This document shows, one piece after another, positions 9,097 to 53,256 of a stretch of DNA of 64,000 nucleotides (position 1 is the stretch's first letter; each line of letters opens with the position of its first letter). The notes below the pieces were generated by a model. That model did no database searches, was not told where the DNA came from, and worked only from the letters and a program-made list of their open reading frames with translations. The stretch comes from an uncultured Candidatus Saccharibacteria bacterium (GTDB taxonomy: Bacteria > Patescibacteriota > Doudnabacteria > UBA920). Location of the stretch: the NCBI GenBank assembly GCA_964474825.1, contig CAYYWQ010000001.1:549609-613608 (forward strand), given 5' to 3'. The position numbers and the translations under genes were made by a program.

Positions 9097-9290
9097 AGTT
9101 TATTCCTTCTCAGGACTTACCCACCGCCGCCTCTTGAACTGGCGAAGCCAGTCCTTCAAGGCGGCTCTGGCCAATTGCTTCGTTATTTTGTTCCGGTTTT
9201 ACTCGCCGTAGCCTGGCTACGCCTCGTAAAATCCTCACAAAATGCCTCGCACTTGGCGGAAGTAGTGTAAGCCCTGTTTATTTATAATGA

Positions 9291-9424
9291 AAAAAAACCG
9301 AACAAAAAACTTTTGTCCGGTTTCGCCATTGGCCTCTCCCGCCATAATTTTAAAAATTATGCGCGGGCCAGCTGCGATTGTAAGGCGACCAAATAATAAA
9401 TCGCAGATTGTAGGCCTACTAAAT
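9291..9424 (-). repeat. Copy 1 of a ~130-nt conserved intergenic element (terminator hairpin plus structured segment)
   Basis: ~85% identical to 13164..13297. Contains hairpin ctgcgatt[19 nt]aatcgcag and the palindrome gtaggcctac. On the minus strand it ends in a hairpin plus U-tract. Confidence 0.6.
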
Positions 9425-9435
9425 TTAGTTAAATT

Positions 9436-12680: not shown

Positions 12681-13004
12681 TTAAACTTGAGGCAGGTTTC
12701 GCAAAAACCTGCTAAAGTGGATAATTACCACCCCTCCTGCCATAATTAGCGCTAAAGCATAAGGGTTATAACCAACGTTCATGGAAGCAACCGCCGCATA
12801 ACCACCAAGGGCCCCTACAATACCAATTAAGATGTCCCACAGCTTTCTGTACCGTGCCTTAGAAACAAACAACCCGGTAATTACTCCCAAAAAAATTGAA
12901 ATTAAAGTATCCATAATTTTTCCTTTCAAACTAATTATGGAGCTGTCCATAACTATTTTTAAAAATGCGTAATGGTCCCGCAATCCCTCCGTTACCTCCC
13001 GCAA
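12681..13004 (-). CDS. Small membrane protein, possibly GlsB/YeaQ/YmgE family
   Basis: Gly-rich TM helices (ISIFLGVITGLFVS…IGIVGALGGYAAV). The true start may be the internal Met MDTLIS. Confidence 0.4.
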   Translation of the reverse strand: MREVTEGLRDHYAFLKIVMDSSIISLKGKIMDTLISIFLGVITGLFVSKARYRKLWDILIGIVGALGGYAAVASMNVGYNPYALALIMAGGVVIIHFSRFLRNLPQV

Positions 13005-13163
13005 TTGCGGGACCGCTTCGCAATTTACATGTTGTCTTCCTGACCGCTCATGCCACCTTTATTGCCCTCTCCCTGGCCTTGATTCATGCCAGAGTCGCTG
13101 TCTGCAAAATTATATGTTTTCATAATTCTCACCGCCTTTCATTGTAGGGCCCTAAATAATTAA

Positions 13164-13297
13164 CAAAAAACCGGCCCAAAATAATTTGTCCGGTTTCGCC
13201 ACTGGCCTCGCCCGTCATAATTTTTAAAAATTATTGACGAACCTTGCTGTGATTATAAGGCGACCAAATAATAAATCACAGATTGCAGGCCTACTAA
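13164..13297 (-). repeat. Copy 2 of the ~130-nt conserved intergenic element
   Basis: Aligns with 9291..9424. The hairpin arm ctgTgatt…aatcAcag carries a compensatory change relative to copy 1 (ctgCgatt…aatcGcag). Confidence 0.6.
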
Positions 13298-13433
13298 ATA
13301 TATGAAATTGTACTCACCTTAAAATTTTATACAATCATTACTGTCTTGTCAACAGAAAAACTTTCCTTCATTTAAGCGAAGAGAGGTAATTTATCCACAC
13401 CAATAAAATTTTTGCTTCGTTCGGGGCACACTG

Positions 13434-27011: not shown

Positions 27012-27116
27012 TCTACTAAATACTAAAATAAACTAAAAATACGAAACCGGCCACAATCTTCAGCCAGGATAAAAATTTGGATTTAGTATTTTTAGTTCTT
27101 TTAGTATTTAGTAGAG
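27012..27116. repeat. Large AT-rich inverted repeat (~30-bp arms, 43-bp spacer) filling the dinB/downstream-gene junction
   Basis: Arms ctactaaatactaaaataaactaaaaatac and gtatttttagttcttttagtatttagtag differ by one mismatch and one indel. Confidence 0.7.
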
Positions 27117-27117
27117 A

Positions 27118-28491
27118 TTACAACTCTTTCATTCTCCCAAAACCCACACTGTCGCGAAATACCGAGCCCGCCTTAAACATTTCCGCGCGCATTAGGGTGA
27201 ATTCGCCATATTTGTTGTTAATAACATCTAACGCTCCCACTAAACGCCTTTGCTGTTCCACGTCCCCAAACAAACTTAACTGTTTAACATAAGGTCTAAC
27301 TCCGGCCACGGTTACGCCCACAAGTTTAATTTCCCTGCCGACAGACGCGCGCAAAGGTTTACTAATTAACCGCGAGCTTTCCAAAAAAATCTCCCGGCCG
27401 TCCTGCACAAAATATCCCAACTTCTTACTGTCGCCAAAACCTTCGTAATTTTTGTCACGGCAGTAACAGCTTATAATATTCCCCATTAAATTTTTGCGTC
27501 TAAGCCTGCGCCCCACCATTTCGCAAAGTTTGTAGAGCACCGGCATAAAAAATTCCTGTTTGCGGAACTCCTGAGGCAAAGTATACATATGCCCAACCGA
27601 TTTAATTTCGTCTTCATTGCGCACGCCCGACTTCCACGAAGTTTCCAACTGTCCCAAGCTGTGTAAATGATGCCCGGTAACCGCGCCAAACCGCGAAACC
27701 AACCAGCTTTCCGGGTAATCCCGCAGTTCCCTTAAAGTTTTAATGCCCAGGCGATTTAAGTTCTTCTCCTGCCTATGGCCAATACCGGGGATGTCGGTAA
27801 GTTGAAGGCGGTTATACAAATCGGTTTTATAAATCCTCAGGATATTATTATTGTCACCCCGACTGAGCCGGAGTGCATCCGACGGCGAACGGAAGGATCC
27901 CTTAACAACTGACGAGTTGTCTAATTTAAGGGATTCCTCGGCTGCACTCGGAATGACAACAACCAGCCCATCCGGCTTCTTTAAATCCGAAGCAATTTTT
28001 GCCAATGTTTTATTTTCCGCAATACCAACACTACACCTTAGCCAATCCCCAACCTCGGTCTTAAATCTTTTTTTTATCTCGAGCGCAATACTAACAGCTT
28101 CTTCAAATGGGTCACTGTCCACTGTGCACTGATCACTGAGCACTTTTTTCACATTACACGCCTTAGTCAAATCCAAAAAACATTCGTCTATGCTATATTT
28201 TTCCACGTGGTCTGTATAATCTCCAACCACTTTTAAAAACCTCCGTGTGTAAAACCGGTAAGCTTCAGCCCGGGTGTGGGTTAAAATAATTTTGGGGTAA
28301 AGTTTTTTAGCTTCCCAAACAGGCGTGCCGGTTTTTATGCCCCATTTTTTCGCCTCAACGCTGGCGGCAATAATAATTCCTCCCAAATGCTCGCAAACTC
28401 CCACAGGCAAACCCCGCCACTGTGGATGGTCCTGCTGCTCCACAGAAGCGAAATACGAATTCATGTCGAGGTGAACAATAATATTTTGCAT
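27118..28491 (-). CDS. dinB: DNA polymerase IV (Y-family) carrying an in-frame insert
   Basis: MQNIIVHLDMNSYFASVEQ… Y-family catalytic core. 457 aa is longer than usual, and the extra ~35 aa map to the palindromic element at 27853..27957. Confidence 0.85.
   Translation of the reverse strand: MQNIIVHLDMNSYFASVEQQDHPQWRGLPVGVCEHLGGIIIAASVEAKKWGIKTGTPVWEAKKLYPKIILTHTRAEAYRFYTRRFLKVVGDYTDHVEKYSIDECFLDLTKACNVKKVLSDQCTVDSDPFEEAVSIALEIKKRFKTEVGDWLRCSVGIAENKTLAKIASDLKKPDGLVVVIPSAAEESLKLDNSSVVKGSFRSPSDALRLSRGDNNNILRIYKTDLYNRLQLTDIPGIGHRQEKNLNRLGIKTLRELRDYPESWLVSRFGAVTGHHLHSLGQLETSWKSGVRNEDEIKSVGHMYTLPQEFRKQEFFMPVLYKLCEMVGRRLRRKNLMGNIISCYCRDKNYEGFGDSKKLGYFVQDGREIFLESSRLISKPLRASVGREIKLVGVTVAGVRPYVKQLSLFGDVEQQRRLVGALDVINNKYGEFTLMRAEMFKAGSVFRDSVGFGRMKEL
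27853..27957. mobile_element. Palindromic MITE-like element, copy A, in-frame inside dinB
   Basis: gtcaccccgac…gagtgcatccga…ggatccctta | taagggattcc…cggctgcactcggaatgac, with terminal inverted repeats gtcaYYccga/tcggaatgac. Homologous copies at 35814..35896 and 52505..52572. Confidence 0.7.
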
Positions 28492-34748: not shown

Positions 34749-36587
34749 TTAATATTTTATTTCAATAATTCTTAGTTTCAAATTTTTTCTGCCATTCCAA
34801 CTGTCTTCTATTAACTCCGCCGCAACCTCTACAGTATCCCCTACTTTTAAACTTTTTTCAAGAAAGCCTTGGTTAAAGGCAATGCTGTCGATGCTCACTG
34901 CGCCTTTTTGGAATTTTAATTGCAGATGCTGCTGCGTTGCACCCACGGTGCGCAGGCTGGTTATTTTTAAATTGGAAATAAAAAATTTAGGACGAAAATT
35001 TCCAACACCAAAGGGTTCGAAGTTAGCTAATAGCTGGTAGGTAGTAGCTTGTAGGTCAGATTCTCCTAATTCAGCTTCAAGATGCAAAACCGGAGACAAA
35101 TCTTCTTCCGAAAGATTCTTGTCCGCATACTCTAGGACCTTCATGTAAAACTTTTCAAAATCTTCAGTCTTTAAAGTAAGCCCTGCTGCTTGCTTGTGGC
35201 CGCCAAAGCGAACTAAATGTTCTCCTGCATATTTTAAAGCTTCCACTACATTAAATTCGCCCACTGTTCTGGCAGAACCAGTGGCTTCATTTTCTTCCTG
35301 AGAAAGCACAATTGCAGGCTTGCCAAAAGCATCGGAAATTCGGCCGGCAACCAAACCAACTATGCCTTTTGGCCAGTCTTCACCCATGAGGACTAAAACT
35401 TTTCTGTCGCTAATAAGTTCTGCCGCGCCCTTAGCCTCGCTCATAACCCGCTCAGTTAACTTCTGTCTGCGGCTGTTAATTTCTTCTAAAGCCACAGCTT
35501 TTTGCTGGGCACTGACCGGGTCTTTTTCCATTAAGAGATGGAGTGCGACGTTTGCATGCTCAAGCCTTCCGGCGGCGTTTAAGCGCGGCGCTACCACAAA
35601 ACCCAAAGTATAAGTATCGGCCGGCTTTCGGTTAAAATCTACACCCGCGGAATTCATTAAAGCCCGCAGCCCCACCCAGCGAGTTTTTTGCAAAACTTTA
35701 AGCCCGTATTTTACCAGTATGCGGTTTTCTCCCAAAAGAGAATGACAGTCCGCTACCGTGCCAATAGCTACTAAATCTAGTAGCCATTTCTCGTAACCTT
35801 CGATGTATTTTCTGTCATCCCGACCGACTCTGAGTGCATCCGAAGAGGAGCGGAGGGATCCCTCTTCTACTGAGTTTAAGGGATTCCTCGGCTCGGCTGC
35901 ACTCGCTCGGAATGACAAACATTTGATCACTTTTTCTTTTTGTGACAAAATCGCGCAAGCGAGTTTAAACGCCACCCCCACCCCTGTTATTTCTGAATAT
36001 GGATAATTATCGCTAGGATTTTTTGGATTAATAAGCGCGTAAGAATTCGGCACTTCCCCAATAATTTCGTGGTGGTCTGTTATTATAAAATCAATATTAT
36101 TTTTTTCACAAAATTCAGCCGCGTCCAGGGAATTAGTTCCGCAGTCTACCGTTATGATTATCTTTGATCCTTCATCTTTAATCTTTAACAGCGCTTCCAT
36201 ATTCACGCCATACCCTTCCGTAAACCTGTCAGGAATATAAGACATTACTTCCACTCCCAAATACCTAAAAGTTTGCTGGAGCACTGCGTTAGCTGTTACC
36301 GCGTCTGCGTCGTAGTCGCCGTAGATACATATTTTTTCGCCCCCTTCGATTGCCAACCAAATCCTGTCCACTGCCTTTTGCATATCCTTAAATAAAAAAG
36401 GGTCGTGCAACTTTTCGTACGCTGTGTCCAAAAACTCTTCTACCTCTTTTTTTTCTGTAAATCCCCGGTTATACAACAACTGCTGAACAAGCTCAGGAAA
36501 AGCTGATAATTTTTCCGCTTCAGCCTGCGGAATTTCTGGTTTTAACTTCCAAACTTTTTGCATATAAGCTATTTTAGCAGCAAGCAA
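34749..36587 (-). CDS. recJ: Single-stranded-DNA-specific exonuclease RecJ carrying an in-frame insert
   Basis: DHH (…IYGDYDADAVT…, …DHH…) and DHHA1 motifs. The segment …NSVEEGSLRSSSDALRVGRDD… is encoded by the palindromic element 35814..35896. Confidence 0.85.
   Translation of the reverse strand: MLAAKIAYMQKVWKLKPEIPQAEAEKLSAFPELVQQLLYNRGFTEKKEVEEFLDTAYEKLHDPFLFKDMQKAVDRIWLAIEGGEKICIYGDYDADAVTANAVLQQTFRYLGVEVMSYIPDRFTEGYGVNMEALLKIKDEGSKIIITVDCGTNSLDAAEFCEKNNIDFIITDHHEIIGEVPNSYALINPKNPSDNYPYSEITGVGVAFKLACAILSQKEKVIKCLSFRASAAEPRNPLNSVEEGSLRSSSDALRVGRDDRKYIEGYEKWLLDLVAIGTVADCHSLLGENRILVKYGLKVLQKTRWVGLRALMNSAGVDFNRKPADTYTLGFVVAPRLNAAGRLEHANVALHLLMEKDPVSAQQKAVALEEINSRRQKLTERVMSEAKGAAELISDRKVLVLMGEDWPKGIVGLVAGRISDAFGKPAIVLSQEENEATGSARTVGEFNVVEALKYAGEHLVRFGGHKQAAGLTLKTEDFEKFYMKVLEYADKNLSEEDLSPVLHLEAELGESDLQATTYQLLANFEPFGVGNFRPKFFISNLKITSLRTVGATQQHLQLKFQKGAVSIDSIAFNQGFLEKSLKVGDTVEVAAELIEDSWNGRKNLKLRIIEIKY
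35814..35896. mobile_element. Palindromic MITE-like element, copy B, in-frame inside recJ
   Basis: gtcatcccgac…gagtgcatccga…ggatccct…taagggattcctcgg…ctgcactcg…ggaatgac, the same family as 27853..27957. Confidence 0.7.
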
Positions 36588-40001: not shown

Positions 40002-40088
40002 TTAGCTTTAATTTTTGTTTCTGCGTTAGCTGGTAGTTAGTAGCTTGTAGGTGGTAGCCAGCAAAAATGCCTGGCTACTGACTACTCC

Positions 40089-41342
40089 CTACTTACTACC
40101 GACTAGCAACTCAATCTCCATTAACCTATTATATTTACAAACCCTCTCTCCTCTTGTGGGCCCAACTTTAATCCATTTGCTTCCAACAGCAACTGCTAAG
40201 TCCACCAAAAAGGTGTCATTAGTTTCGCCGCCGCCACGGTGTGATGGGATAGTTATCATGTTGTGTTTATTTGCCAGCAAACAACACTCAACGGTTTCCG
40301 TTACTGTCCCGGCCTGGTTAAGTTTAATTAAAATTGCATTTGCAGCTTTTTGGTCAATTGCTTTTTGCCAAAGCTTTACATTAGTCACTGTTAAATCATC
40401 TGCCACAACGACAGCGGAAGATTTGCTCATTAAAAGGGGCCAATGTTCCCAATCAAATTCCGAAAGCATGTCTTCCCATGCCACTATGGGATATTTTTGT
40501 AGCCATGGCAAAAACATTTCAATAACTTCCCCTGAACTTAAAACCTTATTTTCTATAGATAGAGTATATTTGCCATCTTTGTAAAATTCAGAAGCCGCGG
40601 CGTCTATGTATATGCCTGCGTCTTCGCCGGGTTTGTACCCAGCGGCTGTAATAGCTTGGGTAATAAGCTCCAAAGGCAACTCGTTATTGCCAATACCTTC
40701 CGGCGCGAACGCTCCTTCGTTTCCCACATTAGTAGAAAACTTTTTTTCTTTCAAAATCTTCTTTAAAGCTTTATAAACCTCTTCCATCATACGAACATTT
40801 TCCGCGGCAGATTGTTCTTTAACCACTGCCAAAATGTATTCCTGTAAATCTGTTGAATTGTCGGCATGTTTGCCTCCTTCAATAAATACTCCTAAAGGCT
40901 TAGGTAATTTTATAGAAGATGATGGAATATTATAAGCTTTCTGTAACCATTCATAAAGTTCCAGCCCCTCATCTGCCGCTGCTGCCCGGGCCACTGCCAT
41001 AGACACTCCTAGAATTGCATTAGCGCCCCAATTCCCTTTATTTTCTGTGCCGTCGCCCTTTATCATCAACTCGTCTATTTCTCTTAAATTTGAAGCGTTT
41101 TTGCCCAAAAGCATTGGCGCTATAACGTTGTTAACATTTGCAACAGCCTTTAACATTCCTTTTCCGTTGTATCGGGTCTTGTCGCCGTCTAACATTACAA
41201 AAGCCTCTTTGCTTCCGGCAGAAGCACCATAAGAAACAGACGCAATTCCAACTGCACCGGAATCTAAAGTTACTTTAACCTCGACACTAGGTTCTCCCCC
41301 GCTGGCCAAAATTTCCCTTGCCTGAATTTTTTTGATTGTCAT
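40089..41342 (-). CDS. eno: Enolase
   Basis: …IQAREILASGGEPSVEV… and …SHRGGGETNDTF… (SHRSGETED-like). Confidence 0.9.
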   Translation of the reverse strand: MTIKKIQAREILASGGEPSVEVKVTLDSGAVGIASVSYGASAGSKEAFVMLDGDKTRYNGKGMLKAVANVNNVIAPMLLGKNASNLREIDELMIKGDGTENKGNWGANAILGVSMAVARAAAADEGLELYEWLQKAYNIPSSSIKLPKPLGVFIEGGKHADNSTDLQEYILAVVKEQSAAENVRMMEEVYKALKKILKEKKFSTNVGNEGAFAPEGIGNNELPLELITQAITAAGYKPGEDAGIYIDAAASEFYKDGKYTLSIENKVLSSGEVIEMFLPWLQKYPIVAWEDMLSEFDWEHWPLLMSKSSAVVVADDLTVTNVKLWQKAIDQKAANAILIKLNQAGTVTETVECCLLANKHNMITIPSHRGGGETNDTFLVDLAVAVGSKWIKVGPTRGERVCKYNRLMEIELLVGSK

Positions 41343-52050: not shown

Positions 52051-52497
52051 TTATTTTTCTAAATTTTTAATTTTTTCAATTCTTCTTTGATGCCTGCCGC
52101 CGCCGAACGCGGTTTTAAGCCAAACGTCTATTGATTGTTTAATTTCGTCAACCGATATAAAGCCGGCACCGAGTGATAATACATTAGCATTGTTATGGTC
52201 GCGCGAAAGGCGAACAATTTCGGGATTTCCGCCGTAATAAACCGCGGCACGAATTCCTTTAACTTTATTTGCCACAATAGCTTCGCCATTTCCGCTCCAG
52301 CCAATAATAATCCCGCGGTTATTGTCTACGTCTTCCGCGACTTTTTGCGCGCAAGGATAAATAAAATCCGGATAATCGTCGTCTTTGTCATATTTAAAAG
52401 GCCCACAATCCTCAATTTCCCTGCCGCTTTCGCGGAGGTAATTAAAAATTGTGTTCTTTAGCTCAAATCCTGCGTGGTCACTGGCAATGTATATCAT
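52051..52497 (-). CDS. rpiB: Ribose-5-phosphate isomerase B
   Basis: MIYIASDHAGFELK… Start moved to the second Met because the first ATG lies inside the palindromic element remnant. Confidence 0.85.
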   Translation of the reverse strand: MIYIASDHAGFELKNTIFNYLRESGREIEDCGPFKYDKDDDYPDFIYPCAQKVAEDVDNNRGIIIGWSGNGEAIVANKVKGIRAAVYYGGNPEIVRLSRDHNNANVLSLGAGFISVDEIKQSIDVWLKTAFGGGRHQRRIEKIKNLEK

Positions 52498-52504
52498 AGT
52501 ATTA

Positions 52505-52572
52505 TTTGTCATTCCGAGTGCATCCGAGGAATCCCTTAAGAGATCCTTCGCAACGCTCAGGACGACATGTTA
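52505..52572. mobile_element. Degenerate copy C of the palindromic MITE-like element (intergenic, tpiA-rpiB)
   Basis: gtcattccgagtgcatccgaggaatcccttaag… matches the arms of copies A and B. The right arm is decayed. Confidence 0.55.
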
Positions 52573-53256
52573 TCACATGTCGATTATTTGATTAAAATAA
52601 CTTGGTACTAAACTTGCTCCACCCACCAGTAAACCGTCTACATTTCGCTGCTGTAAAAACCCTTGAGCGTTTAGGTTGTTTACACTGCCGCCATATAAAA
52701 CTTTTGCGACCCCATATTTATTTTTTATAAAAATTCCAATTTTCTCCGCGTGTTCGGGAGATGCAGTTTTACCTGTACCAATTGCCCATACCGGTTCATA
52801 AGCTACTATGACCGACGAAGCATCCAAACCTGCTAAATCAATGTCTAACTGTTGTTTTAGAACATCTGTAACTTCTAAATCGTCTTGCTCTACAGTTGTT
52901 CCGTAACCTACACACAATACAGGAATAATCTTATGTGACAAAGCGGCTTTAACTTTTGCATTAATCATTTCATCACTTTCCCCAACTCCCCGCTTTTCAC
53001 TGTGGCCAATTATGCAATATTTTATTTTTAAATCTTTTAATTGTAATAAAGATACCTGCCCGGTATAAGCCCCCTTTTCCTCCCAAAAACAATCCTGCGC
53101 CCCAAGCCTCGGGTAAGAGACGGATGGCAAATAAATAGTCGGGGGGCAAAGCACCACAGTATTTTTGGCTTTTACAGATATAGACACCGAAAGTTTCTGG
53201 GCATCTTTTAAAGTGGTTGGATTAAGTTTCCAATTTGCGATAATGAGTTTTTTCAT
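52573..53256 (-). CDS. tpiA: Triosephosphate isomerase
   Basis: IIANWKLNPT, IGHSEKR and AYEPVWAIGTG motifs. Confidence 0.9.
   Translation of the reverse strand: MKKLIIANWKLNPTTLKDAQKLSVSISVKAKNTVVLCPPTIYLPSVSYPRLGAQDCFWEEKGAYTGQVSLLQLKDLKIKYCIIGHSEKRGVGESDEMINAKVKAALSHKIIPVLCVGYGTTVEQDDLEVTDVLKQQLDIDLAGLDASSVIVAYEPVWAIGTGKTASPEHAEKIGIFIKNKYGVAKVLYGGSVNNLNAQGFLQQRNVDGLLVGGASLVPSYFNQIIDM

Follow-up and report, generated by a model that had tools for sequence, protein, structure and literature searches.

In-frame palindromic repeats in dinB and recJ of a Patescibacteria genome are very probably gene-less relatives of a GIY-YIG nuclease cassette

A 64-kb stretch of DNA (hereafter, the window) from a 1.21-Mb contig (1,211,450 bp) of the Patescibacteria, or candidate phyla radiation (CPR), contains three copies of a palindromic repeat, two of which lie in frame within dinB and recJ, while the third separates tpiA from rpiB. 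Among named organisms, Candidatus Doudnabacteria come closest to the source genome. [quoted passage not shown] Taking the window as our main data and comparing it with over 200 copies drawn from public genomic and metagenomic data, we find it very likely that the three are gene-less inverted dimers of TGTC-tagged repetitive extragenic palindromic (REP) sequences, MITE-like derivatives of a cassette with an ssnA-like gene, which are tolerated in frame in coding DNA. The elements are palindromic and multi-copy, covary within each of their arms, and share their ends with a cassette that carries a small GIY-YIG nuclease gene. In-frame copies are present in many unrelated genes, the distribution among orthologues is patchy, the coding copies are located in loops, and the cassette protein is homologous to one from Neisseria.

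A covariance model built from 25 family members and run over the whole window with filters off returned exactly three elements, and no others below E = 1: copy B at 35813-35917 (73 bits, E 2e-15), copy A at 27852-27958 (64.7 bits, E 2e-13) and copy C at 52507-52567 (46 bits, E 7e-9). The three related palindromes of the first-pass annotation are therefore all present, with some revision of their limits: the interval first given for copy A, 27853-27957, is close to that found here, the end of copy B moves from 35896 to 35917, and copy C covers 61 nt. The copies and their parts are as follows.

Copy A, 27852..27958, minus strand: 107-nt inverted dimer of TGTC-tagged stem-loop units in dinB, encoding DinB residues 179-213, VIPSAAEESLKLDNSSVVKGSFRSPSDALRLSRGD
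Copy A arm 1, 27926..27958, minus strand: TGTC tag, ATTCC...GGAAT stem, GAGTGCAGCCGA linker and CCCTTAA tail; 97% complementary to arm 1 of copy C
Copy A central spacer, 27905..27925, minus strand: own small hairpin, ACAACT/AGTTGT, at the position held by the GIY-YIG gene in the full cassette
Copy A arm 2, 27852..27904, minus strand: ATCCC...GGGAT-type, degraded to ATCCT...GGGGT, with a long linker that includes TCGGATGCACTC
Copy B, 35813..35917, minus strand: 105-nt inverted heterodimer in recJ, encoding RecJ residues 224-258, LSFRASAAEPRNPLNSVEEGSLRSSSDALRVGRDD
Copy B arm 1, 35876..35917, minus strand: TGTCATTCCGAG-CGAGTGCAGCCGAGC-CGAGGAATCCCTTAA, near-identical to arm 1 of the GIY-YIG cassette
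Copy B arm 2, 35813..35863, minus strand: AGGGATCCCTC...GGTCGGGATGACA, with the ATCCC/GGGAT stem intact
Copy C, 52507..52567, plus strand: 61-nt compact heterodimer without spacer, filling the tpiA-rpiB intergenic gap
Copy C arms: arm 1 at 52507-52539, ATTCC-type; arm 2 at 52540-52567, TCCT/AGGA-type (reverse complement TGTCGTCCTGAGCGTTGCGAAGGATCTC)

The similarity between the copies is apparent at several levels. A 23-nt core, GAGTGCAKCCGAGGAATCCCTTA, occurs twice in the window at three or fewer mismatches, as against none expected from shuffled sequence; copies A and B have a 72-nt left half in common at 74% identity; and the complementarity between the right arm of copy A and the left arm of copy C extends over 34 nt. 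When folded as single-stranded DNA (ssDNA), copy A exceeded its shuffles on both strands (z -4.7 and -7.0, the latter for the gene-sense strand), as did copy B (z -4.0 and -5.4), and copy C did not (z -1.45). The GC content of the elements is 52-57%, compared with 42.7% for the window. A plain search of the window for the termini yielded only the five known ones, a count which by itself is not above chance, and an Rfam search of the window gave no family at gathering thresholds, with noise only near copy A at E values up to 10.

Across the family, the element can be described as four short boxes separated by variable sequence:

Box1: TGTC-ATTCC-GAG
Linker 1: variable, often with its own GC hairpin, or a minimal GCGNAGC
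Box2: CGA-GGAAT-CCC(TTAA)
Spacer: variable
Box2': AGGG-ATYCC-TC
Linker 2: variable
Box1': C-GGRAT-GACA

In the layout seen in the window, the mirror arm reads AGGG-ATCCC-TC, linker, C-GGGAT-GACA. Stems consist of five perfect pairs, followed by G-A mismatches or variable sequence, and the window copies have linkers of 6-31 nt and a CCC(T) tail. The termini had initially been given as gtcaYYccga…tcggaatgac; the true ends are TGTCAT...ATGACA. For statistics on the CPR subfamily, we used 104 CPR-type metagenome elements, in which the outer T (102/104) and A (98/104) next to GTCAT/ATGAC form part of the element and the flanking trinucleotides differ. No target-site duplication was evident at copies A, B or C, nor did duplicated flanks recur among the 104 metagenome copies. 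Arm 1 with ATTCC..GGAAT and arm 2 with ATCCC..GGGAT were found together in about 100 of these 104 elements, and the third stem position was Watson-Crick paired within the arm in 56 of 57 cases (second arms, unconstrained by the search pattern), as T-A in 47, C-G in seven and G-C in two. Since complementarity is kept within the arms and broken between them, the two arms are autonomous stem-loops, which makes the element a heterodimer and not a plain hairpin of terminal inverted repeats. A single long hairpin as the sole relevant fold was rejected because of this systematic break.

We also observed the four-box core within longer palindromes. In Acidobacteriota (L031, L047, L040 and L092) it lies between outer arms ...GCGGAAAAAG / CTTTTTCCGC..., and in Chloroflexota (L050, L074, L084 and L041) between outer arms GTTTCAAAAGT / ACTTTTGAAAC, the full elements measuring around 150-170 nt; the core therefore spans phyla, while the outer arms are lineage-specific. 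One Acidobacteriota pair, 2.3 kb apart at L031, was considered as a candidate transposon and rejected, as it encloses ordinary genes (an ABC ATPase-like open reading frame (ORF) and another ORF) and no mobilisation gene.

Copy C is set between two genes of the minus strand:

tpiA, 52573..53256, minus strand: upstream of copy C, with its stop codon 5 nt from the element
rpiB, 52051..52512, minus strand: downstream of copy C; its longest ORF starts at an ATG in the element terminus

This copy was correctly recognised as intergenic at the outset. It is not simply decayed, as was then thought, being a compact dimer with a different second type of unit. The accompanying suggestion that it supplies an ATG to rpiB is right in so far as an in-frame ATG is present within the element at 52510-52512; but, because the RpiB Pfam domain begins at residue 7 of that longest ORF, the ATG at 52495-52497 is the likelier true start.

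The other two copies lie within the following genes:

dinB, 27118..28491, minus strand: Y-family DNA polymerase IV, 457 aa; Pfam IMS 8-169, IMS_HHH_1 232-278, IMS_C 297-405
recJ, 34749..36587, minus strand: single-strand DNA exonuclease, 612 aa; Pfam DHH 85-217, DHHA1 396-487, RecJ_OB 504-608

As had been proposed, both elements are in frame and leave the reading frames unbroken: the two ORFs are uninterrupted, and the domains are intact on either side of the insert. Each insert adds around 35 residues, at the junction of palm and thumb in DinB and in the region of the DHH domain in RecJ, past the helix ending ...KLACAILS, and the segments include LDNSSVVK and SPSDALR in DinB, and NPLNSVEEGSLR and SSSDALR in RecJ. 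Alignments to homologues of known structure are interrupted at the insert, between query residues 189 and 226 for DinB against 7yll_A and between 217 and 263 for RecJ against 8y30_A. In AlphaFold2 models built from orthologue alignments, per-residue confidence (pLDDT) falls below 50 solely at the inserts (DinB 191-212, RecJ 226-258), with confident flanks, and the inserts appear from these models to sit at surface positions that the fold tolerates. These data agree with the earlier view of the inserts as extra polar segments that typical homologues lack: most orthologues are without the element, and the extra segment, when aligned, coincides with it and falls in a loop predicted at low confidence. 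An independent Logan assembly encodes an identical DinB, which excludes an assembly artefact.

To what extent the inserts reflect DNA or protein history can be judged from orthologues, for which we surveyed the best ~100 database homologues of DinB and likewise of RecJ. Both sites proved to be hypervariable loops, whose length ranged from 7 to 121 aa for DinB and from 16 to 67 aa for RecJ. The element was absent from most orthologues and was carried at the same site by a minority of those with 60-70% identity, among them P0007, P0012, P0019 and P0039 for DinB, and P0124, P0131 and P0144 for RecJ; the same palindrome was confirmed in the DNA of carrier orthologues. The closest homologues of the window proteins (P0002, P0122 and P0123) have unrelated sequence at the site. 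When the window recJ was compared with its three carriers, third-codon identity was 0.71-0.81 within the element, as against 0.42-0.46 in the rest of the gene, and the three codon positions were about equally conserved inside the element, implying that what is conserved is DNA and not a peptide, the element being either under constraint or of more recent date than the gene. RecJ carriers were scattered on a neighbour-joining tree, which is rough and has no support values, with sisters that do without the element (P0131 versus P0240; P0144 versus P0210, P0214 and P0236; and the window versus P0122). In the first-pass annotation, the same peptide in orthologues was to be taken as the sign of an ancestral protein feature. 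The outcome is mixed, in that a minority do carry it; this does not refute an insertion, given the patchy occurrence on the tree and the conservation at the nucleotide level.

In other orthologues, unrelated palindromes fill the same loops of DinB and RecJ, which are permissive landing sites. In four or more scattered lineages of RecJ, as well as in the DinB of L247 and L248, this type of element was found with codon position and frame unchanged. Such same-site copies could be the remains of one old insertion kept by selection or the product of repeated site-specific insertions.

Further repeats were noted in these proteins. DinB has a second hypervariable loop, after a conserved CNV motif (window residues ~114-127), in which orthologues carry other palindromic or tandem repeat families, such as AGCTTACCAGATGATCAGCTTATAAGCTTATCAGCTGGTAAGCT in L247 and AGTGCTAAGTGCAA repeats in L248 (locus L249 is also named for this loop); in L216 it holds the same TGTC-type dimer, and KKVLSDQCTVDSD in the window DinB may be a remnant of such a second-loop repeat. 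In addition, the KPxG-DLY loop of the L216 dinB contains a palindrome with a perfect 20-bp stem, CACAAGGGGAATCCTTGTGC...GCACAAGGATTCCCCTTGTG, encoding HKGNPCAAQGFPLW, which adds a third family of coding palindromes at this site; related peptides are present in several other DinB orthologues (P0011, P0029 and P0064). At least two more insertion hot spots were apparent in the RecJ orthologues P0131, P0135, P0210, P0214 and P0240, at alignment columns ~700-750 and in the N-terminal region. Their repeat-derived peptides (IARRSASDDEAI...GLLAIAE, RRHSDPERSEGEES...ILRSAQDDA and NPLPEGEGG) indicate several other coding repeat families in CPR proteins.

We then turned to the wider distribution of the family. 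A subfamily-specific pattern identified 116 stretches in metagenome contigs with a GC content of 0.31-0.52. In low-GC CPR-like contigs, 23 of 119 copies (19%) were inside ORFs, defined as having at least 55 codons on each side, in several frames and in both orientations (14 sense and 9 antisense). Random 100-nt windows from the same loci met this definition in 37.6% of cases, so that copies are depleted about two-fold from gene interiors and yet are commonly tolerated there. Ten host ORFs were scanned, including those for CysRS, a radical SAM enzyme, YfhO, two Wzy_C proteins, TGT and DnaX, together with another DinB that carries the element in its other variable loop; with DnaX and this second DinB, the list of replication and repair hosts thus extends beyond the dinB and recJ of the window. 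The same type of element therefore occurs both in intergenic DNA and in unrelated genes elsewhere, which upholds the RPE-like behaviour that had been attributed to it. A broader pattern matched at least 119 stretches across metagenome-assembled genomes whose labels, which may be imperfect, include Acidobacteriota, Chloroflexota, Gemmatimonadota, Verrucomicrobiota, Patescibacteria, Bacteroidota, Nitrospirota and others. In the higher-GC genomes most copies look intergenic, and many have extra lineage-specific outer inverted repeats. A phage origin was considered and rejected, since 2.9 million viral contigs yielded no more than six stretches.

A motif scan of 1.68 Mb of loci retrieved by means of the repeat identified six small GIY-YIG ORFs. 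At two loci (L137 and L232) the gene has arm 1 on one side and arm 2 on the other; at L200, arm 1 adjoins the start of the gene and the contig ends past it; and at L227, arm 2 adjoins the stop. The same arm-gene-arm order was seen at three of three homologue loci that were chosen independently of the repeats (L250, L252/L253 and L258; homologues P0269, from a Doudnabacteria genome, P0241 and P0247). The cassette reads arm 1 TGTCATTCCGAG(G)GAGTGCAKCCGACCGAGGAATCCCTTA, 6-12 nt, the 96-aa gene, 5-30 nt, and arm 2 TTAAGGGATCCCTCGG.TGCACTCGGGATGACA, and its linker GAGTGCAKCCGA recurs in all three copies of the window. Four genomic neighbourhoods are represented among the five bracketed cassettes and the part-bracketed L227: transketolase/pfkB, upstream of thrS, tmk/thyA, and a fourth common to L137 and L227. 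Since the same arms bracket a GIY-YIG gene in related contigs, we regard the window copies as gene-less, MITE-like derivatives, which are to the Ssn cassette what a MITE is to its parent element.

The GIY-YIG proteins (~96 aa) consist of a single domain (Pfam PF01541), gave no match to an NCBIfam family and have only weak UPF0213 matches in the PDB. One of them, P0241, shares 52% identity (pairwise E 3e-29) with a 94-aa ORF of N. gonorrhoeae that has eight NTS copies within 1 kb, which is the arrangement of ssnA. Other tblastn matches were to Sinorhizobium, Azospirillum lipoferum, Novosphingobium aromaticivorans and Sphingobium, several of which are named as carriers of CGTC-REPs (PMC3733652). 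Most of the close homologues among the best 120 sit on contigs of 0.5-1.5 kb, consistent with flanking repeats that break short-read assemblies, and the family may be under-represented in binned CPR genomes.

These features can be set against several known systems, beginning with the RPEs (Ogata et al. 2000, 2002). In R. conorii, close to half of the copies are intragenic, from three of ten families, and a 2024 review regarded a similar mechanism in other prokaryotes as merely "conceivable" (PMC10969869). Like RPEs, the elements described here are multi-copy palindromes of ~100-150 bp that lie in frame in unrelated housekeeping genes without disrupting them, encode polar segments placed where the fold tolerates them, and have a sizeable intragenic fraction (the 19% noted above for CPR-like contigs). 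They differ from RPEs in their hosts, Patescibacteria as opposed to Rickettsiales, and in being dimers of short tagged stem-loops, unlike the ~150-bp RPE-1 type. Our literature searches for palindromic elements, RPEs or MITEs in CPR or Patescibacteria returned nothing relevant, in keeping with the initial impression that RPE-like elements had gone unreported for such genomes, and searches for the repeat string GTCATTCCGAG and related strings returned unrelated primer matches only.

A closer parallel is provided by CGTC-tagged REPs (Di Nocera et al. 2013), in which the tag is often TGTC, the stem begins with A-T and then T-A, and the short tail is C-rich (PMC3733652). Inverted dimers predominate, with heterodimers frequent among them, and their units may fold apart or together as one hairpin; "many" intragenic copies lie in genes for DNA synthesis and repair; and the 2013 survey identified no dedicated transposase or enzyme gene for them (PMC3733652). 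CGTC-1 corresponds to Neisseria dRS3, and in R. conorii CGTC-1 is RPE-6 and CGTC-4 is RPE-4 (PMC3733652); the link to RPE-4 and RPE-6 drawn here follows this published assignment and not an alignment to the RPE consensus. An unpaired TGTC tag is present in copies A, B and C, a T precedes GTCAT in almost all CPR-type metagenome copies, and the CGTC form of the tag is, as judged by eye, common in Acidobacteriota copies. The resemblance appears to extend to the start of the stem (ATTCC...GGAAT) and the C-rich tail, and it includes the replication and repair hosts and the dimeric structure, as all three window copies are inverted dimers. It is also visible in the encoded peptides. Published REP-encoded peptides include VIPGLDPGIH...GHD, SFPRK...RGND and VIPAKAGI, with VIP... 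or SF(R/P)... at one end of intragenic copies and ...R(N/D)D or ...GMT at the other (PMC3733652), and the window peptides, VIPSAAEESL...GD and LSFRAS...GRDD, match these end signatures. The differences lie in the perfect stem, which is 5 bp here as opposed to 8-9 bp, in the tail, which is CCC or CCT in place of CCA, in the host phyla (Patescibacteria, Acidobacteriota, Chloroflexota, Gemmatimonadota and others), and in the loop. Because the loop length of the published REPs, and apparently also their perfect stem of 8-9 bp, is not matched, the repeats form a new family and belong to none of the four published CGTC families. The resemblance to RPEs probably reflects membership of a shared superfamily, that of CGTC/TGTC-tagged REPs.

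The third system is that of NTS and Ssn. The 28-nt NTS of Neisseria, CGTCATTCCCGCGMAVGCGGGAATCYRG, contains dRS3 and is bound and cut as ssDNA by SsnA (Chenal et al. 2025, PMC11893778), a small GIY-YIG nuclease with widespread homologues, whose gene is flanked by NTS copies (PMC11893778). In Neisseria and in Wolbachia relatives, such motifs are bound and cut as ssDNA by GIY-YIG nucleases of the Ssn family. The repeats resemble NTS box for box (CGTCATTCC-CGCG-MAV-GCGG-GAATC versus TGTCATTCC-GAGCG-NA-GCGAG-GAATC), and the system as a whole resembles NTS/Ssn in the repeat-gene-repeat order of related Patescibacteria loci and in the identity of their protein to the NTS-flanked Neisseria gene. The CPR proteins differ from SsnA in being known here from sequence. 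The 2025 study makes no mention of Patescibacteria or of intragenic or in-frame copies (PMC11893778). Like REPINs (REP doublets forming hairpins) and bacterial interspersed mosaic elements (BIMEs), the elements are non-autonomous inverted doublets of short imperfect palindromes that form a larger hairpin, lack target duplications and are associated with a gene, present in single copy, that has these repeats on either side. They differ from the REPIN/RAYT (REP-associated tyrosine transposase) system in the tag, TGTC as opposed to GTAG, and in the gene, a GIY-YIG nuclease as opposed to an IS200/IS605-type tyrosine (HUH) transposase, no search aimed at RAYT genes having been made. QMITE1 of Coxiella burnetii and other intragenic MITEs are likewise small inverted-repeat elements that are sometimes fused in frame to host ORFs (PMC5896051, PMC10969869); QMITE1-type elements are classed as MITEs of the terminal-inverted-repeat type and have no sequence relation to the element and no link to Ssn. 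Taken with classical MITEs, the common ground is that the ends of the element are those of a longer gene-carrying cassette, whose gene is not a recognised transposase. We conclude that this is a new family of CGTC/NTS-type repeats in Patescibacteria and not a new kind of system, and that Rickettsia-like coding palindromes are also present in this phylum.

How might such repeats have come to lie within dinB and recJ? If they derive from the cassette, an Ssn-type nuclease would recognise the arms as single-stranded hairpins and so drive their spread or maintenance. Insertion may proceed through single-stranded DNA at forks, during repair or in transformation, without target duplication, although this is a guess. 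Coding copies would then persist only where they fall in a tolerant loop and leave the frame open, with no stop codon of their own; the loop at the palm-thumb junction of DinB, the loop in the DHH region of RecJ and, for copy C, an operon spacer would be the surviving sites here.

Several observations weigh against this account. The mutual identity of copies A and B is ~74-80%, copy A is partly degraded, and there is no sign of recent activity in the source genome. The motif scan found no GIY-YIG ORF, and hence no ssn gene, in the 64-kb window, and the source contig is absent among the best 120 GIY-YIG homologues, a result that is uninformative rather than negative. The linkers of 6-31 nt, often with a GC hairpin, contrast with the 4-5-nt loops of the four published CGTC families. 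The window arms and the minimal arm miss the SRM pattern HGTCWYN(0-2)YYVSBRHN(0-5)WNVSBRGN(0-2)RNCYNB, which NTS fits and which has no match anywhere in the window. The roles demonstrated for Ssn enzymes are the cutting of ssDNA and the modulation of transformation, not transposition. On the side of the host genes, the RecJ tree is rough, no clean empty site was found, as no relative of more than 90% identity was at hand, and the inserts are presumably translated as disordered polar loops of ~35 residues, which we infer from frame conservation only.

Other explanations share some of this evidence. The hairpins could have been domesticated and kept for a role in cis, either as RNA hairpins that affect the translation or stability of the dinB and recJ mRNAs or as Ssn cut sites that identify self DNA as it is taken up, a proposal that is compatible with an origin from the cassette and differs only in the reason for persistence. 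It draws on the third-codon identity of 71-81% in the element (42-46% elsewhere in RecJ orthologues), on the codon site and frame shared by four or more scattered lineages of RecJ and by the DinB of L247 and L248, on the conservation of the boxes across phyla, on the recurrence of REPs in replication and repair genes (PMC3733652) and on the modulation of Neisseria transformation by NTS/Ssn (PMC11893778). However, the mixture of 14 sense and 9 antisense in-frame copies speaks against a strand-specific role as RNA, the element is missing from the nearest homologues of the two genes (P0002 and P0122), the unrelated palindromes in the same loops fit permissive sites better, arm 2 of copy A is degraded, and the high similarity could equally stem from young independent insertions; a role in cis therefore seems to us distinctly unlikely as the reason for which the copies persist.

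The term MITE-like, as first applied to the copies, is apt for ends held in common with a gene-carrying cassette. A classical MITE would be something more specific, namely a deletion derivative of an insertion sequence with a DDE transposase, moved by way of its terminal inverted repeats with duplication of the target site. TG...CA termini, a length of ~100 nt and dispersal in many copies over sites and genomes are what such an element would show, but the lack of target-site duplications at A, B and C and in the 104 metagenome copies, the REP-type independence of the arms with their internal covariation, and a 96-aa GIY-YIG nuclease, not a transposase, as the sole gene found between matching arms make this origin very improbable. 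We give next to no credence to the last alternative, in which the inserts are ancestral, lineage-specific low-complexity linkers whose palindromic look and similarity are incidental: several orthologues of 60-70% identity do have a similar peptide at the same site, but the same DNA turns up between genes, as copy C, and within eight or more unrelated protein families, is missing from most orthologues and all solved homologues, is conserved equally across codon positions, folds as a long hairpin (z down to -7) and differs in its presence between sister lineages.

The derivation of the window copies from the cassette also admits a bolder extension, which we regard as unlikely though somewhat less so than a role in cis. 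Here, arm-ssn-arm would be an unrecognised autonomous mobile element in which an ssDNA GIY-YIG nuclease takes the place of a transposase, and its dimers would home repeatedly into the same repair and replication loops, to be kept there by selection at the DNA level. It is possible that the dimers act as self-marking Ssn cut sites that affect DNA uptake or recombination in competence-dependent Patescibacteria. If true, the copies at the same site and in the same frame of RecJ and DinB would be independent site-specific insertions, not relics.

During this analysis, we also noted other structured sequences in the window. Two leaders of ~140 nt, 86% identical to one another, are located at 9290-9430 and 13163-13305 (both minus strand), upstream of a gene for a response-regulator receiver and of an operon ending in a GAF-PAS-GGDEF-EAL protein. 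In each, a pair of hairpins lies within a closing stem GGCCU/AGGCC, after which comes an intrinsic terminator that has a U8 tail, and one stem shows a compensatory change from CTGCGAT/ATCGCAG to CTGTGAT/ATCACAG. The leaders have a sub-threshold match to the Rfam c-di-GMP-II-GAG riboswitch (24.6 bits against a gathering threshold of 40, E 0.008), raising the possibility that they may be c-di-GMP-type riboswitches in a CPR genome. At 40027-40105, a different palindrome, with 35-nt arms that are 74% complementary and rich in TAGCTGGTAG, fills the eno-gpmI spacer; it resembles recJ-internal 35017-35060, possibly by chance, and gives the impression of a further repeat family lodged, like copy C, in the spacer of an operon. 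The gap that separates the dinB stop codon from the following minus-strand gene is filled by a 104-nt AT-rich palindrome (27012-27115; 27-nt arms, 85% complementary), possibly a terminator or a further repeat. Finally, an inverted repeat at 12962-13026, AAAATGCGTAATGGTCCCGCAAT / ATTGCGGGACCGCTTCGCAATTT, with 23-nt arms that are 83% complementary, overlaps the start of a 107-aa ORF at 12681-13004.

Coding palindromes have so far been treated largely as a Rickettsia curiosity. In Patescibacteria, genomes are tiny, so each insert is conspicuous, and the proteins affected include core enzymes such as DinB, RecJ, DnaX, CysRS and TGT. The element explains part of the otherwise unexplained length variation of CPR proteins and of their low-confidence loops, and serves as a practical warning for annotation, alignment and structure prediction. 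Together with the 2025 work on Ssn, the cassettes make the origin and movement of such repeats, those of the RPE type included, testable with a 96-aa protein and two oligonucleotides.

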